A DNA stretch of 12,227 bases, taken from IMG/VR virus record IMGVR_UViG_3300041809_000977. One strand, 5' to 3'. Below, piece after piece: positions 28 to 4,703 of the stretch; the stretch's first letter is position 1, and every line of letters begins with the position of its first letter. Position numbers and translations under genes: made by a program. This stretch comes from a virus. The notes below the pieces were generated by a model. That model saw only the letters and a list, made by a program, of their open reading frames with translations. It did no database searches and was not told the origin of the DNA.

Positions 28-456
28 ATGCCGGTAGACCTGACCCCTATCAACGGCAATCTGGAGTCCGTCCTCATCGACAGGCTCCAGATTGCCGTGA
101 TTGAAAGACTCCGCACCGATTATCCCATGGTCGCACAGAACATGCGGGTGGAGAAGTTCCCCTGTCCCTACGCTGATTACGTTAGCTATGCCTTCATTAG
201 CTATCTCGCGAATATCCATCGGGACGACAAGGAAACCATTACAGTATACGAGTATCCGGCAACCGCGTGGGACTTCATCAAAGAGAAGTACGCCCCGAAG
301 TGGTTTCTGAAACGTTGGCCGGTTCAGTATGAGCGCAAAGACGTTGTGGTGCATAGTGAGAAGAACTTCATGTGCCCTCACCTTCCCACGGAGCCCACCT
401 ATCCTCATGCTTTGTGGCTGATGATGAACCAAGACCGACCGAGTTGGTGGCAATAA
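28..456 (+). CDS. hypothetical protein, 142 aa; may be 5' partial
   Basis: ATG at 28 and TAA at 454-456. The reading frame stays open back to window position 1 (DSSGVATKV precedes the M), so the true start may lie upstream of the window. Only a weak SD. I recognise no domain. GC is intermediate. Confidence 0.55.
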   Translation: MPVDLTPINGNLESVLIDRLQIAVIERLRTDYPMVAQNMRVEKFPCPYADYVSYAFISYLANIHRDDKETITVYEYPATAWDFIKEKYAPKWFLKRWPVQYERKDVVVHSEKNFMCPHLPTEPTYPHALWLMMNQDRPSWWQ

Positions 457-497
457 GTTATTAGCTGTTCGTAATAAGTGAAAGTCTTTTGACTAAT

Positions 498-524
498 GCC
501 CTCTATTTTGGAGGGCATTTTGTT
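498..524 (+). terminator. Hairpin plus T-tract between the 28..456 ORF and HNH gene 1. Candidate intrinsic terminator whose 3' arm is also the SD of the next gene.
   Basis: GCCCTC (498-503), a 7-nt loop TATTTTG, then GAGGGC (511-516), followed by ATTTTGTT (517-524). It sits 42 nt after the stop of 28..456. The GGAGGG arm lies 9-11 nt upstream of ATG 525. Confidence 0.4.
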
Positions 525-1229
525 ATGCGTAAATTTTCTGAATCCCATCGTCGTGCTCTTAGTGAGAGCCACAGAGGTAACCCGAAATTAGGAGGGCATA
601 CGCTTACTTTGGATGATTGTAAGCTTGGCGGCATGGCGAACAAGAGTAATTTAGCCGGTCAAGTGTTTGGAAATTTGATGGTGTTGCGAGAAGGGCCTCG
701 TGCAGGTCGAGGACCAACCCCTCGACCTCACTGGTGGTGCTTATGTAAACTTTGCGGTACAGAAAAATCTATCTCGGCGGCTGCATTGAAATCAGGCGGG
801 GCGGTCAGTTGTGGGTGTAAGAAGACTCATGCTTATTGGGTAAAACAAGGGAAGATATGCTCAATCCACGGCACCCCTAAGGAATTACGAAAGAATGGGG
901 ACACGGAGAAATTCTATTGTGTGGCTTGTGGTCTTTGGAATCTAGCAAAAGCTAGAGCGAGAGTTTTTCAGCTTCCCTTCTCTATAAAGAAGGAAGACAT
1001 TGTGATACCTGTAGTTTGTCCTATATTGGGGTTGCCTTTAATAACAACCCCACCAAAATCGGATAACACCCCAACACTTGATAGGATAGTGCCATCATTG
1101 GGGTACACACCAGATAACATTCATGTAATTTCTTTCAGGGCTAATCGTTTGAAACAAGATGCCACAGCGTTAGAATTGGGAGCCATTTTAAGTTATGTCA
1201 AACAATACACCCCTTTGGATAATCATTGA
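525..1229 (+). CDS. HNH homing-type endonuclease with an N-terminal NUMOD3-like motif and a Cys-rich W-x-C-x-C-x-CG module
   Basis: The ORF track starts at TTG 489. I prefer ATG 525 (MRKFSESHRR...), which has GGAGGG 9 nt upstream.
- SESHRRALSESHRG matches the NUMOD3 pattern.
- PHWWCLCKLCGTEK...SGGAVSCGCKK is the Cys module typical of free-standing phage HNH endonucleases.
- The C-terminus CPILG...TLDRIVPSLGYTPDNIHVISFRANRLKQD fits the LDRI-x-P..GY..N..VIS..AN..K HNH core.
- GC is lower than the backbone. Confidence 0.8.
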   Translation: MRKFSESHRRALSESHRGNPKLGGHTLTLDDCKLGGMANKSNLAGQVFGNLMVLREGPRAGRGPTPRPHWWCLCKLCGTEKSISAAALKSGGAVSCGCKKTHAYWVKQGKICSIHGTPKELRKNGDTEKFYCVACGLWNLAKARARVFQLPFSIKKEDIVIPVVCPILGLPLITTPPKSDNTPTLDRIVPSLGYTPDNIHVISFRANRLKQDATALELGAILSYVKQYTPLDNH

Positions 1230-1749
1230 GGCGTCACACCTTTTTCGTTCCGGTGACAAGTTCCAAACACAGTTCTTTGTAGTTGACGTTGTGAACTACC
1301 TCAAGCGTAATTTTTACGATAACACTGACGATTTTCACACTGTAGTTTTGCACGGCTCCACCAAGGATGAACAGGCGGAACGGTACACGGCTGCTCTTGA
1401 ACGCTTCGATGTCACTGTTATTCGTATGCGCCCCATTGCGTCTATCGCCGGGGAGAACAGGGTCTATTACAAGCCCACGTGGTATTGTCATAAACTCATG
1501 GGTCATGAAATACCAAAAGGCTCTGATGTTATGTTGGTTGGATTTCATAATGAAAGATACCTTACTTTCCTTCAGAAATACCATAAGGATTTTGAGCTAT
1601 CGGTCGCGGCCTTTGAGACTCCATCAAAGAAACAAGGTATGATGAAAATTCCTGACTCATTTAAGCCTCTCCTTCGACACGCAATTGACTTGGATTCTCA
1701 CGTAGCAGAAATAAAAGCAGAGTTCCGTGGAAAACGCAGTATTAGGTAG
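1195..1749 (+). CDS. hypothetical protein, 184 aa (possibly a degenerate NYN/PIN-like fold; speculative)
   Basis: ATG 1195 with GGGAG 12 nt upstream. It overlaps the 3' end of the HNH gene by 35 nt and ends at TAG 1747-1749.
- Low GC.
- LWIIIEASHLF and DVMLVGFHNERYLTFLQKY loosely resemble NYN motifs (vfIDgeNl ... LvSGDsDF), but the acidic residues are replaced.
- The - strand ORFs 1234..1584 and 1657..1878 are read as antisense to this gene. Confidence 0.55.
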   Translation: MSNNTPLWIIIEASHLFRSGDKFQTQFFVVDVVNYLKRNFYDNTDDFHTVVLHGSTKDEQAERYTAALERFDVTVIRMRPIASIAGENRVYYKPTWYCHKLMGHEIPKGSDVMLVGFHNERYLTFLQKYHKDFELSVAAFETPSKKQGMMKIPDSFKPLLRHAIDLDSHVAEIKAEFRGKRSIR

Positions 1750-1750
1750 T

Positions 1751-1960
1751 ATGCGTTCTTCTACTACCAGCCGAACTAAAGATTTAACCGGCATGACCTT
1801 CGGGTACCTTACACTCATAGGTGTTGTGAGAACTGAGGGAAGTAACCGGGTGTGGGCGGCTAAATGTGTCTGCGGCAATGAAACTACAGTGACTACTACA
1901 AATGCTGTTAGGAAAAGAAAACAATACTGGGACAGCCAATGGTGCGACGGAAGGCGTTGA
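1751..1960 (+). pseudogene. Truncated HNH-endonuclease N-terminal module. A fragment with no nuclease domain.
   Basis: - ATG 1751 lies immediately after the stop of the previous gene.
- MTFGYLTLIGVVRTEGSNRVWAAKCVCGNETTV reproduces the G..FG.L.V....W..C.CG.E module of the two intact HNH genes.
- The ORF then ends at 1960 (...KQYWDSQWCDGRR*) without the SCGC or HNH parts.
- Its 3' end overlaps the convergent - strand ORF 1908..2231.
- Base composition switches at ~1950. Confidence 0.5.
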
Positions 1961-2231
1961 ACCGGCGTCTCAAGTAGCGAAGGTTGTCGATGTACAGTTG
2001 GCTCTCAAGTTCTCGCTCAGGGCGTTCCGCATAGGGCACATTGTAGGGCTCCAGATGCCCCTTGGCGGCGATGTAGGCGGTATCTATGACCCAAGAGAGG
2101 CTCCGCTGGAGCCCGTAGTCGCTGTGCTTGTCTGAGGGGATTCGGCAGTTCTTGAGAAGCGTCCCAACGATGTCATTGAACTTAATGACAGGGGGCAGTA
2201 GAGCGTCAGGTGCCTTGTTGGGAGGTCTCAT
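1908..2231 (-). CDS. hypothetical protein, 107 aa
   Basis: ATG at 2231..2229 forms an ATGA overlap with the stop (2230..2228) of the upstream Sel1-like gene. The track ORF 1908..2246 begins 5 codons earlier. High GC. The 3' end runs into the low-GC island, so the true C-terminus is uncertain. Confidence 0.45.
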   Translation of the reverse strand: MRPPNKAPDALLPPVIKFNDIVGTLLKNCRIPSDKHSDYGLQRSLSWVIDTAYIAAKGHLEPYNVPYAERPERELESQLYIDNLRYLRRRFNAFRRTIGCPSIVFFS

Positions 2232-2656
2232 GCTACCCGCTTCCACACCAGTTTGAGCATCGGCTTCGGCGGCTCAAGCTGATTGAGCGTCTGTCGAGCC
2301 CACTTGGCGCATTCGTCAGTCGCCCCTTTGTTCTTTGCGAGGTAGAGTTTCAGGTGGTGAATCGCGGCGTCTTTGTTAACATCCACGTTGCGGGAGTAGA
2401 GCGTGGCAAGCTGGTACGAGGCGTCCACGTTGCCCTGCATTGCCGCTGCCTCGTAGAAGTCAATGGCGTTGGGGTCTTTCAATTCCTCCATCGTCCGCCC
2501 GAGATTGAACAGAACAATCGGAGCGGACGGACGGAGACGAAAGGCTTGCCAGAACTTTCTCTGAGAGGCGAAGTATTCGCCTTGTGCGAAGAGGGTAGCC
2601 CCCTCATCAATGAGTGAAACGTAGACCTCTTCGGAATGCCGGTCGGCGGGGTTCAT
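2228..2656 (-). CDS. Sel1/TPR-like repeat protein, 142 aa
   Basis: The track start at 2689 is TTG. I prefer ATG 2656..2654 (MNPADRHSEEV...), which has GAGG 8 nt upstream. The repeats FYEAAAMQGNVDASYQLATLYSRN and DAAIHHLKLYLAKN resemble Sel1/TPR units. High GC. Confidence 0.55.
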   Translation of the reverse strand: MNPADRHSEEVYVSLIDEGATLFAQGEYFASQRKFWQAFRLRPSAPIVLFNLGRTMEELKDPNAIDFYEAAAMQGNVDASYQLATLYSRNVDVNKDAAIHHLKLYLAKNKGATDECAKWARQTLNQLEPPKPMLKLVWKRVA

Positions 2657-2690
2657 GTTAGTTGCCTCAAAATCACCACCAGTTATCAAA

Positions 2691-2727
2691 ATTGTGACTT
2701 TTCGACTCTAAGTAGGAGAGTCACAAT
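2691..2727 (+). promoter_or_regulatory. Perfect 9-bp inverted repeat ATTGTGACT-N19-AGTCACAAT spanning the SD and start codon of HNH gene 2. It lies in the divergent intergenic region.
   Basis: Left arm 2691-2699, right arm 2719-2727. The right arm includes the AT of ATG 2726. The 19-nt spacer contains AGGAGAG. The region lies between the divergently oriented Sel1-like gene (start 2656) and HNH gene 2 (start 2726). Confidence 0.4.
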
Positions 2728-3328
2728 GAAAAAACTTGTGGTAGAAGGAAGTCGTTATGGTACGTTACAGGTTAAAGCCCTTGCCCCAAAAGAACAATGG
2801 AAATACATAGACAAGGGTCACGCTGAGAGGTGTTGGGTATGCATTTGTGATTGTGGAGCAGAAGTCCTTGTACGGCGCTCCACCTTAGTCAACACCAAAA
2901 ACCCCAAATGTAACAACCCACACCCACCCAAATGCCTTAAATGTGGAGAAACCAATTCTGATAACTTCTACCCTCGCTCTGTTGGCGAGTGTAAAAAGTG
3001 TGCAATCGAACGAACCAACCTAGCCGCCTCTAAATTGAGTGGGTACCACCTATTCATACGTTACAAGATAACGTTAGAACAGTACGAGACCCTACTTAAA
3101 AAGCAAGGGGGCACATGTGCTTTATGCGGAGAGCCCCCTGATAACAACCCCTTGTCGGTAGACCATGACCACTCCTGCTGCCCCACTGACCGTTGTTGTG
3201 GGAAATGCATTAGAGGGTTGGTACATCGCCGCTGCAATACCCTCATAGGCATGGCTGATGACAGCGTTGATAAGCTAACTAGAGCAATAGCTTATTTGAA
3301 TCAACATCAGCATCAACAGGCACAGTAG
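2726..3328 (+). CDS. HNH endonuclease, endonuclease VII-like, with an N-terminal W-x-C-x-C-x-CG Cys module
   Basis: ATG 2726 with AGGAG 9 nt upstream. The track start 2636 is an upstream extension.
- RCWVCICDCGAEVLV is the same Cys module as in HNH 1.
- CALCGEPP...LSVDHDH...CGKCIRGLVHRRCNTLIG matches the T4 endonuclease VII signature (C..C...VDHDH...RGLLC..CN..G).
- Low GC.
- The 3' end overlaps the convergent gene 3279..3725 by 50 nt. Confidence 0.8.
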   Translation: MKKLVVEGSRYGTLQVKALAPKEQWKYIDKGHAERCWVCICDCGAEVLVRRSTLVNTKNPKCNNPHPPKCLKCGETNSDNFYPRSVGECKKCAIERTNLAASKLSGYHLFIRYKITLEQYETLLKKQGGTCALCGEPPDNNPLSVDHDHSCCPTDRCCGKCIRGLVHRRCNTLIGMADDSVDKLTRAIAYLNQHQHQQAQ

Positions 3329-3725
3329 AAACAAGAACGATTGCTCCATACGTACCCCATGTTTTGTGGTTTGGAAGAAAAGGCTTCCATGCCTCATCAA
3401 TAAGGCAGTTGGCGGGAGCCTCGGCGAACAGCGGAGCCACAACAGCGTCCGCCCATCCCGCCAGACCGCAGCCGATGCGGGTGACTTGGAACGTCTCCTG
3501 CGGGTTCATCTTCGCGTACAGGATGAAGGTGTAGATGTAGTAGCGAAGCTTGTCCGGGCTGATAGTGGAGTCGGGCTCGTTGGTGGGTTTGGCACAGGTC
3601 GGGATACCGAAGCTGTCGCCCTGCGGGCCGAAGCCTTGTCCATACCGTGCTCCGTGAGACATCGCGGCCTTGGCGGCTCCGCCGCCGTGACGACCCAATT
3701 CGTTGCTGCCGAATACGAAAATCAT
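3279..3725 (-). CDS. conserved phage-type protein with a Gly-rich N-terminal Rossmann-like motif, 148 aa; family not identified
   Basis: ATG 3725..3723 with AAAGGA ~9 nt upstream. The N-terminus is MIFVFGSNELGRHGGGAAKAA...GIPT, with ...TRIGCGLAGW later. I recall this FGSN..G.HG.GAA...IPT pattern from phage proteins but cannot name the family with confidence. Confidence 0.6.
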   Translation of the reverse strand: MIFVFGSNELGRHGGGAAKAAMSHGARYGQGFGPQGDSFGIPTCAKPTNEPDSTISPDKLRYYIYTFILYAKMNPQETFQVTRIGCGLAGWADAVVAPLFAEAPANCLIDEAWKPFLPNHKTWGTYGAIVLVSTVPVDADVDSNKLLL

Positions 3726-3758
3726 GGAAGTGTCCTTTCGTTGCGTGTTGAGGTTAAA

Positions 3759-3953
3759 CTAACTCTTCGTTGACGATTGCCGCCCACGACGCACCGAACT
3801 TCTTTGGGAAGGTGCCATTTCGGCGATTTTGGCTTTGACGGCGTTGATGCCGACGCCATCCATGCCTTTGAAGGTCTTGACCTTCTTGAGGGTAATCCGG
3901 CTTGCCAGTATTCCACGTTTTTCTCCTATGCCTACAGTATACCGGGGAGCCAC
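3759..3953 (-). CDS. hypothetical small basic protein (~64 aa); start uncertain
   Basis: Frame chosen by hand-counted codon-position GC over 3762-3909. The third positions of this frame are 64 % GC, against 48 % and 50 % for the other two position classes. GTG at 3953 or ATG at 3863. No clear SD. It competes with the 3722..3916 frame. Confidence 0.35.
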   Translation of the reverse strand: MAPRYTVGIGEKRGILASRITLKKVKTFKGMDGVGINAVKAKIAEMAPSQRSSVRRGRQSSTKS

Positions 3954-3970
3954 CTGTTTTGGCTAGTAAA

Positions 3971-4231
3971 TCAGGAAATTATTTTCGCGTTCCTCGTCTC
4001 CCGGTTGAACCCCACATGGCTGGCGGTCATGAAGGGCGGCTTGCAGCAAGGAGCCACAGTAAAGGCGCTCCCACAGTCGGTGCATTCCACGATTCGAGCC
4101 CCATTATCCTTCCGGGCGGTCGAGCCGCCATCCGGGCAGACTCCCCGGTTCAGCATGTCCAAGTCGGTCTCCGGTCCCCAGTGCAGGGGGGTTTCGAGGC
4201 GTTTGAATCGGCTAAAGAATCGTTTCAACAT
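3971..4231 (-). CDS. small Cys-rich protein (zinc-ribbon-like), 86 aa
   Basis: ATG 4231..4229 lies 12 nt after the stop of the upstream gene. It contains IVECTDCGSAFTVAPCCKPP. Codon-position GC in 4081-4140 modestly favours this frame (70 % against 60 % and 60 %). Confidence 0.5.
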   Translation of the reverse strand: MLKRFFSRFKRLETPLHWGPETDLDMLNRGVCPDGGSTARKDNGARIVECTDCGSAFTVAPCCKPPFMTASHVGFNRETRNAKIIS

Positions 4232-4243
4232 GCTTCAAGCATA

Positions 4244-4534
4244 CTACAGTTGGGTGGCTTCCATGTAAAGCGTGGAGCACTTCTGGCAAACATCCTTGTC
4301 CAGCAAGAACACAGCGGCACGGCTGACAGGGTACTGCCTGTCCCAATGAACTACATGTCCGCACATCGCCGGGGTGTCGGCCCCGCCGCTTGTCTTCTTC
4401 CCCTTCTCGGTCAGGATGCGGATGTGCCATGGGCTGGTCGAACCAGCAGCCACGTTCTCACAGAAGGCGTGAAGGGGCAATAGCGCGGTCGGTTGAGGCT
4501 TACTGCGAGAGAAGAGTTTCGTGAACCAGTTCAT
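4244..4534 (-). CDS. hypothetical protein, 96 aa
   Basis: ATG 4534..4532. Hand-counted GC by codon position over 4261-4500 gives 74 % at the third position of this frame, against 57.5 % and 49 %. This is strong periodicity, and it rejects the overlapping + ORF 3902..4483. Confidence 0.6.
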   Translation of the reverse strand: MNWFTKLFSRSKPQPTALLPLHAFCENVAAGSTSPWHIRILTEKGKKTSGGADTPAMCGHVVHWDRQYPVSRAAVFLLDKDVCQKCSTLYMEATQL

Positions 4535-4703
4535 GAGTGTTCTGCCCTTTCAAGTGGAGAATTTGGTCGTCAACAGCAAGAAGATAGCCGACCATCATTG
4601 CGTTCAAAATGAGGATACGGTCTTGAGGCGAGGGGAAGAGATAATTCTCCTCAACAAACTTACGTGCCCGTTCCGTGAGTCGAATTTGGTCACGGTCGCT
4701 CAC
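4500..4703 (-). CDS. hypothetical protein, ~67 aa
   Basis: GTG 4703..4701 forms a GTGA overlap with the stop of the upstream gene (4702..4700). The track start at 4724 is TTG. Over 4541-4700 the GC by coordinate class is 63 % (mod 3 = 2), 28 % (mod 3 = 1) and 55 % (mod 3 = 0). That fits a coding frame, but it does not choose between this - frame and the + frame 4521..4886. I chose the - frame on amino-acid composition (IRLTERARKFVEENYLFPSPQDRILILNAMMVGYLL) and operon polarity. Confidence 0.4.
   Translation of the reverse strand: MSDRDQIRLTERARKFVEENYLFPSPQDRILILNAMMVGYLLAVDDQILHLKGQNTHELVHETLLSQ

Follow-up and report, generated by a model that had tools for sequence, protein, structure and literature searches.

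The stretch of DNA analysed here, the virus record IMGVR_UViG_3300041809_000977 of IMG/VR (12,227 nucleotides (nt); the whole stretch is referred to as the window), carries near its left end three genes that share one cysteine (Cys) module and resemble the free-standing homing endonucleases of phages. The three open reading frames (ORFs) are present as an earlier note on this DNA, made from the letters alone, had placed them, all on the + strand: gene A at 525-1229 (234 aa), B at 1751-1960 (69 aa, or 77 aa from GTG 1727), and gene C at 2726-3328 (200 aa). Except for its first 2 kb, the whole window is a leftward gene block. This report is focused on the domains of A, B, and C, on the sites that these genes occupy, and on the manner in which they may have arrived there.

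The guanine-plus-cytosine (GC) content of the window is 53.6% and that of its backbone is 55.4%, and not the 58-60% previously given for the backbone. At third codon positions (GC3), A (0.38), B (0.42), and C (0.46) are clearly poorer than the backbone genes (0.64-0.73), which bears out the claim that the endonuclease genes are AT-richer than their surroundings, and the same composition is shared by orf1195 (0.46), a non-endonuclease gene. All three genes had been described as sitting on low-GC islands; the low GC stands, whereas A and B do not have separate islands and fall, together with orf1195 (1195-1749), within a single low-GC block at ~405-1960 (~1.5 kb). Milder GC dips occur elsewhere in the window, at 3700-4000, 4500-4700, and 9400-9800.

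The Shared Cysteine Module

The common N-terminal Cys module of A, B, and C, initially recognized by inspection, was recovered independently with two profiles. A hidden Markov model (HMM) of 55 positions, built from 11 copies of the module, all from outside the window, was searched against 225 six-frame segments of the window and matched A (E = 4e-16, positions 2-55), B (8e-12, positions 1-44/49), and C (1e-7, positions 17-53); no further copy was found among the 225 segments, the next best match having E = 0.1, and the outcome was unchanged when the sequences of either the A family or the C family were left out of the build. Furthermore, positions 189-252 of the PHROG 374 profile match A (1.1e-12), B (3e-12), and C (3.1e-5). 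The single motif W-x-C-x-C-x-CG that had been ascribed to all three copies is not uniform: the motif of A, W-x-C-x-C-x-x-CG, is one residue longer, and B has an A-x-C-x-C subtype, which is also found in a Vibrio phage, and is without the terminal SCGC pair.

The pattern G-x2-FG-x-L-x-V...W-x-C-x-C-x-CG...SCGC is found in phage proteins of several architectures, in which the module is fused to PacI-like, Endonuclease_7, T5orf172/GIY-YIG-like, and AP2 domains, and in APSE-1 the module lies inside the polymerase gene, beside an HNH ORF. Neither Pfam nor NCBIfam has a model for it. The Cys module is widespread, occurs together with nucleases of many types, and is presumably a zinc-binding domain that targets DNA.

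The Nuclease Core of Gene A

Gene A comprises an N-terminal stretch that resembles NUMOD3, the Cys module (651-818, + strand, residues 43-98), a zinc ribbon of the form C-x2-H...C-x2-C, and a PacI-like core at ~930-1211. A matches PHROGs 3322, 1035, and 374, and no match was found in Pfam (E ≤ 1) or NCBIfam; Pfam is likewise empty for the outside relatives of A. The NUMOD3-like motif reported in the earlier note does not stand as a domain assignment, since the NUMOD3 model (PF07460) is unmatched and the likeness is a visual one, confined to FSESHRRALSESHRG, which is kept in P0002-4.

The family of A is defined by the invariant residues C165, P166, D186, R187, G193, Y194, N198, S203, A206, N207, and K210, within the pattern CP..G...LDRI..GY..N..S.RAN.LK, and D186-R187, Y194, and N207 are invariant across 41 members. 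The profile of this family matches PacI (PDB 3LDY) weakly (E = 0.0036), with LDRI..GY..N of the family aligned to VDRS..GY..N, and PacI is the top and sole credible Foldseek match in the PDB (probability 1.0) for an AlphaFold model of A (predicted local distance difference test, pLDDT, 82). PacI is a His-Me finger nuclease that lacks the catalytic His, a loop Tyr substituting for it (PMC5714182). On the basis of the family alignment and of the model, A is predicted to be a free-standing endonuclease with a PacI-like His-Me finger core, in which D-R stands for D-H, and by analogy the invariant loop Tyr would probably take over the role of the missing catalytic His.

The claim that A and C carry different nuclease cores is supported by these assignments, C being of the Endonuclease_7 type as described below: the HMMs of the A family and the C family did not cross-match. 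A deep homology of the two cores was considered and rejected in favor of separate families in one superfamily, because the hhalign alignment was collinear but had a probability of 1.8%.

The Site of Gene A

Gene A is located between orf28 (28-456, + strand, GC3 0.68), a backbone gene that forms the left flank of the first island, and orf1195 (1195-1749, + strand), which has a probable NYN/LabA fold, overlaps A by 35 nt, and is low in GC here. More than 100 clusters hold the NYN-fold gene at 56-98% identity, contigs of 325-463 kb among them, and its usual neighbors are genes for ThyX, dCMP deaminase, and dUTPase. No curated family covers it: searches of Pfam and NCBIfam were empty, that of Pfam also for its outside relatives, and tblastn against cultured phages gave no match. 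As a side observation, a reading of its motifs gives Glu, His, and Asn as invariant residues where canonical NYN domains have Asp. The NYN-fold gene is likely to be the gene that adjoins the homing target.

In the endonuclease-free loci L014 and L015, homologues of orf28 (50-56% identity) immediately precede the NYN-fold gene, and the spacing of the two genes in L014 and L015/16 is 69-88 nt, with no endonuclease between them. Furthermore, no A-like gene was seen upstream of the NYN-fold gene in L020/21, L022, L023, L024/28/29, and L030, and no gene is called at the site on two ENA contigs. The site is thus free of A in at least eight lineages and carries an A-type gene, at exactly the same position, in four lineages, all diverged: the window itself, L008-10 (66% identity), L004-7 (56%), and L025-27/31 (39%). 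The A-like gene of L009 has upstream of it an orf28 homologue of 35% identity. In the three closer lineages A overlaps the start of the NYN-fold gene by 14-35 nt, while in L025 the two are separated by a 24-nt gap. Full-length proteins of the A type were found in 4 clusters, versus 108 clusters for the NYN-fold gene.

In the GC-richer L004, L008, and L009, the same three-gene block is again low in GC; in L025, a genome of 43% GC, the A-NYN pair blends with the native composition; and in the endonuclease-free L014, L015, and L030 the GC3 of the NYN-fold gene is backbone-like (0.63, 0.73, and 0.66, respectively). The earlier note had named, as a finding that would count against it, related genomes carrying the genes at the same positions with backbone-like composition. 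The same position was indeed found for A, but the same-site genes are again low-GC islands and are sporadic, and the distribution of A therefore fits homing to a fixed site better than vertical inheritance with the backbone. The compositional evidence would fit a transfer of the A-NYN segment out of a lower-GC relative, and an L025-like low-GC lineage is a plausible donor candidate.

Downstream of the NYN-fold gene, where the window has B, L004 and L008 hold another endonuclease gene, of the GIDR...CxxCN type; such an exchange of one endonuclease gene for another at the same site has precedents in T4-like phages (PMC2988022). Low-GC endonuclease genes of other types are present in these related contigs at L004 4055-4570 (- strand), L004 7117-7716, and L008 1286-1801; one is of the W..M..RC...GRGI...SLDRLD type, and the others have a NUMOD-like N-terminus and a GIDR...CxxCN core. 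A Pfam search with these genes gave no match.

Two metagenome contigs, L011 and L012, are 98% identical to window 405-1719 and have different sequence upstream (L011 1-326, L012 1-301), in which the last 17 codons of orf28 are joined directly to a homologue of the pre-orf28 gene of L014. The break at 405 was considered as the edge of a mobile block and dropped, since the HALWLMM tail is native to orf28 homologues and the upstream sequence matches the pre-orf28 gene of L014; the junction appears to be either a deletion variant in the population or a chimera of assembly.

Gene C and the X/Y Junction

Gene C is preceded by AGGAG 8 nt upstream and comprises the Cys module (~2735-2911), a zinc ribbon, and an EndoVII domain (3050-3301). 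Residues 109-192 match Pfam PF02945, Endonuclease_7, with E = 3.1e-18 and 65.9 bits against a gathering threshold of 23.6, and all the Cys, Asp, His, and Asn residues that are invariant in the family are kept. Residue 167 (3224-3226) is His, whereas a zinc-binding Cys occupies this position in 90% of relatives (RGLVHRRCN in C versus RGLLCxxCN). The closest relatives of C have 36-48% identity, none exceeding ~50% among 1.84 billion representatives, and the best of them share the EndoVII domain only, while the layout of module and EndoVII is also found in a few distant relatives (P0228, P0267, and P0299). The arrangement of C is repeated, 100% identical, on two other metagenome contigs.

C lies between two backbone genes of the - strand. 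On its left is Y (2228-2656, probable start ATG 2656), a TPR-like gene that is 56% identical to L001 6940-7374, the alignment starting at the MN residues; on its right is X (3279-3725), an A1S_2505/PHROG 2072 gene (NCBIfam NF049995, 1.3e-36; PHROG 2072, 8e-41) that is 73% identical to its homologue in L001. As had been claimed, C is the only + strand gene within the leftward block and overlaps its convergent neighbor by 50 nt, the last 15 codons of X lying within the 3′ end of C. In L001, the one comparator locus for this site, the end of X (6937) and the start of Y (6940) are 2 nt apart, with no endonuclease between them, versus a spacing of 622 bp in the window. Scans of viral contigs with Y and orf28 gave no relatives.

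The similarity of X to its L001 homologue is clear only to ~nt 3327, and the stop codon of C occupies 3326-3328; furthermore, the conserved AIAYL motif of C falls within the 50-nt overlap, the GC content of which is 0.35-0.42. Because of these three features, the DNA of the overlap most likely belongs to the insert, X now ending inside it. A native origin of the C-terminal tail of X, for which a MAFFT alignment of VPVDADVD with VTIDAEAD had been considered, was given up for capture from the insert. The GC content is 0.35-0.47 as far as ~nt 3395, ~70 nt past the stop codon of C and within conserved X coding sequence, and then 0.65-0.70, a pattern expected of a co-conversion tract, of which it may be the compositional footprint.

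B, a Remnant Downstream of the NYN-Fold Gene

The start of B is coupled to the stop codon of orf1195 (TAGTATG, one base after), and the module occupies ~1781-1921 and ends at position 44/49 of 55, the terminal SCGC Cys pair being absent. No nuclease core follows it in any frame, in agreement with the earlier description of a module without a core, and B has no match in Pfam or NCBIfam. The nearest phage matches of B (tblastn) are the N-termini of nucleases or DNA-binding proteins of 211-394 aa, namely T5orf172/GIY-YIG-like nucleases of Vibrio phages and AP2 proteins of Clostridium phages, and a stretch beside the HNH ORF of APSE-1. From the module HMM and these matches to longer proteins, B is called truncated and is read as the decayed N-terminal stump of a third putative endonuclease gene, downstream of the NYN-fold gene. 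A homologue search with B in a collection of 5.8 billion sequences gave no candidate (too few shared words), and B as a called protein was found nowhere.

To the right of B, orf1908 (1908-2246, - strand, GC3 0.67), a backbone gene, overlaps its 3′ end by 53 nt; no relatives of orf1908 were found by exact look-up or by a scan of viral contigs. The two right-hand island junctions are both convergent overlaps of ~50 nt (1908-1960, 53 nt; 3279-3328, 50 nt), and at both the backbone gene has its tail encoded on the strand opposite the 3′ end of an endonuclease gene. Public short contigs identical to the window end at 1691-1719 or begin at 2663-2933, and none spans B, orf1908, or Y (window 1700-2660), which may mean that this stretch varies among strains.

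Hairpins Upstream of A and C

Both intact genes are preceded by a strong hairpin. At 495-519 (+ strand), a hairpin followed by a T-run (-18.4 kcal/mol, z = -5.2) is terminator-like for orf28 and is the sole terminator-like site within 300-3900; its 3′ arm holds the Shine-Dalgarno sequence of A (GGAGGG, 5 nt before the ATG). Equivalent hairpins, of different sequence, precede the A-like genes of L009 and L004. At 2691-2727 (+ strand), an inverted repeat (I4) forms a hairpin (-17.6 kcal/mol, z = -5.3; none of 200 shuffles folds as well) that covers the Shine-Dalgarno sequence AGGAG of C as well as the AU of its AUG. For mobE, segB, and I-TevI-III, hairpins that occlude the ribosome-binding site have been described (PMC2988022), and by analogy those of the window probably keep A and C translationally silent.

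Source of the Window and Other Genes

A megablast search of the whole window against 50,697 records of cultured phages gave no match. The window encodes a homologue of the major vault protein (7241-9757, - strand, 838 aa; Pfam MVP_shoulder 1.9e-23, Vault_3 2.6e-10), which is 40% identical to ORFs of 462-735-kb genomes of uncultured phages and 72% identical to its homologue in L001, a 98-kb IMG/VR contig. To judge by the vault-homologue relatives and the empty megablast search, the source is either an uncultured huge phage or a virus closely related to one. That huge phages have a homologue of the vault-shell protein may merit separate attention. The window also carries an ATP-grasp ORF of the R2K clade (10817-11794, - strand; Pfam R2K_3, 5.4e-12).

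Proposed Intronless Homing and Its Alternatives

We consider it fairly probable that the window received three free-standing homing-endonuclease genes independently of one another, by "intronless homing," two of them intact and one a remnant. Among the features by which homing endonucleases are recognized, a domain of a known nuclease superfamily is present in A and C and lacking in B, an empty site is found for C (L001) and for A (L014, L015), and a sporadic distribution at one site is found for A. The proposal that a free-standing homing endonuclease has invaded between conserved genes, previously made for C, thus describes the placement of both C (L001) and A (L014, L015/16, and others), and cleavage by either enzyme is presumed. 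In this mechanism, A would have taken the short spacer between orf28 and the NYN-fold gene, its 3′ end giving the latter a new start codon, and C would have entered the X/Y junction in the opposite orientation, overwriting the last codons of X. During mixed infection, the enzyme would cut an endonuclease-free allele at or near the neighboring conserved gene, and repair would then copy the endonuclease gene and flanking donor sequence into the cut genome; we propose that such copying would render the NYN-fold gene and the 3′ end of X as low in GC as the endonuclease genes themselves.

Several observations weigh against this reading. Protein identity to the empty-site comparators is only 50-80%, and gene loss in their lineages, instead of gain here, could have produced the same pattern; for the site of B and the right boundary of its island, no comparator was found. 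The GC3 of the NYN-fold gene is 0.05-0.1 below that of its neighbors in the endonuclease-free L023, L024, L028, and L029, and part of the GC dip of this gene could therefore be intrinsic to it. A is without the canonical catalytic His and C has His167 in place of a zinc-binding Cys, and the activity of both is assumed. Finally, the overlap of A with the NYN-fold gene in the three closer lineages also fits a functional two-gene unit.

The last point leads to the alternative that survives best, although we regard it as unlikely: A, and possibly C, would be a domesticated phage nuclease acting with the coupled NYN-fold protein, for instance in processing DNA or in breaking down nucleic acid of the host or of competitors. 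The retained overlap, the intactness of all the family-invariant residues of A, and a neighborhood of nucleotide metabolism (ThyX, dCMP deaminase, dUTPase, and NUDIX genes) are in line with such a role, and viral homologues of PacI have been proposed as restriction-like enzymes (PMC5714182). However, the NYN-fold gene occurs without A in most lineages and hence has no need of it, A is compositionally alien wherever the host backbone is GC-richer, and selfish endonuclease genes of the T4 type also overlap with or couple to their neighbors (PMC2988022).

Less likely still, with a small chance in our estimate, the low-GC blocks would stem from selection or mutation bias acting locally, for instance through expression timing or the codon usage of accessory genes, rather than foreign origin and co-conversion. 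The milder GC dips elsewhere in the window and the slightly low GC3 of the NYN-fold gene in some endonuclease-free genomes would be accommodated by such a bias. It is countered by the GC3 drop of ~0.2-0.3, which is limited to the inserted genes and directly abutting sequence, by the backbone-level GC3 of NYN orthologues in endonuclease-free GC-rich genomes, and by the coincidence of the block boundaries with those of the empty sites.

The earlier note had taken A, B, and C as three paralogous cassettes. In pairwise BLASTP none of the comparisons is significant (A/C, best E = 0.04, in an out-of-register stretch; A/B, E = 19; C/B, E = 0.011, over 17 residues), and the three share family-consensus residues only. 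That one cassette was duplicated within this genome and its catalytic domains swapped is very improbable, because the restriction of the module to these three genes in the window, their similar low-GC composition, and the collinearity of A and C (module, zinc ribbon, and beta-beta-alpha-metal core, both matching PHROG 1035) are outweighed by the failure of the pairwise matches, by the closest relatives of A being same-site genes of other phages (56-66% identity), by the finding that C (closest relatives 36-48% identical) and B (closest relatives in Vibrio, Clostridium, and APSE phages) have best relatives different from each other's and from those of A, and by the varying details of the module (the extra residue of A; the A-x-C-x-C subtype that B has in common with a Vibrio phage). 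Since each gene is closer to genes outside the window than to its neighbors within it, the module is not a product of within-genome duplication, and A, B, and C are, as far as these comparisons indicate, independent arrivals with a common zinc-binding domain. The modular shuffling suggested alongside paralogy applies across the family, in which one module is found with several catalytic domains, and not within this genome.

Beyond independent insertion by intronless homing, a more specific interpretation is offered tentatively, and we place it somewhat below an even chance. Genes of the A type would constitute a homing family with a PacI core (His-less and Tyr-dependent) that targets the spacer upstream of the NYN-fold gene in huge phages and carries an NYN allele along; the low-GC tract would be the visible co-conversion footprint of marker exclusion, and the Cys module would be a portable DNA-targeting domain used in at least five architectures.

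If independent insertion is confirmed, the intronless-homing model of T4, with intergenic genes, co-conversion, and translational hairpins, would extend to huge phages, and two enzymes would be at hand with candidate substrates, the empty-site alleles of L001 and of L014/L015, one of the two having an active site of the rare PacI type, which lacks a catalytic His. Attention is also drawn to a widespread putative zinc module that is absent from curated libraries.

Comparison With Known Systems

A, B, and C belong to known superfamilies and represent ordinary phage biology; they provide a well-documented example and do not change current understanding. The closest parallel in placement is with the free-standing endonucleases (seg and mob) that T-even phages carry. 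Like these, A and C occupy spacers between genes that are conserved in related phages and are sporadic, and different endonuclease genes can take each other's place at one site; flanking sequence is apparently co-inherited here; and hairpins cover the ribosome-binding site as for mobE, segB, and I-TevI-III. Intergenic free-standing endonucleases, co-conversion, and such hairpins in phages have been reviewed (PMC2988022). The differences are that the host here is an uncultured huge phage, that the cores are of the Endonuclease_7 and PacI-like types instead of the mob-type HNH or the GIY-YIG of T4, and that the DNA-binding part is the N-terminal Cys module, not a C-terminal one. At the level of the module, A, B, and C align to the same positions, 189-252, of PHROG 374 ("HNH endonuclease"), the copy of B being truncated.

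C resembles T4 endonuclease VII and the members of PF02945, including the actinophage genes annotated "endonuclease VII / HNH," in having CxxC...DHDH...C..CN, and relatives of the Endonuclease_7 domain are found in 911 phage records. It differs in its additional N-terminal Cys module, which is uncovered by any cultured-phage match listed, and in its intergenic, antisense, and sporadic placement, which points to homing and not to Holliday-junction resolution.

A is comparable with PacI and the His-Me finger group 20 (PDB 3LDY/3M7K), a group described as mostly viral (PMC5714182), and has the D-R pair, a loop Tyr between two beta strands, a helix Asn, and an N-terminal zinc motif. The His-less core with an omega-loop Tyr, by which Jablonska et al. 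(2017) characterize the group, is found in A, whereas of the two zinc motifs that they list only the N-terminal one (C-x2-H...C-x2-C) is present: the second, CxxC...CxxC, site of PacI is lost in the A family, with VISFRAN in place of LACFICN, SFRA standing for the CFIC of PacI. In addition, A has the Cys module and the NUMOD3-like N-terminus that PacI is without, and its context is of the homing type, not of the restriction type.

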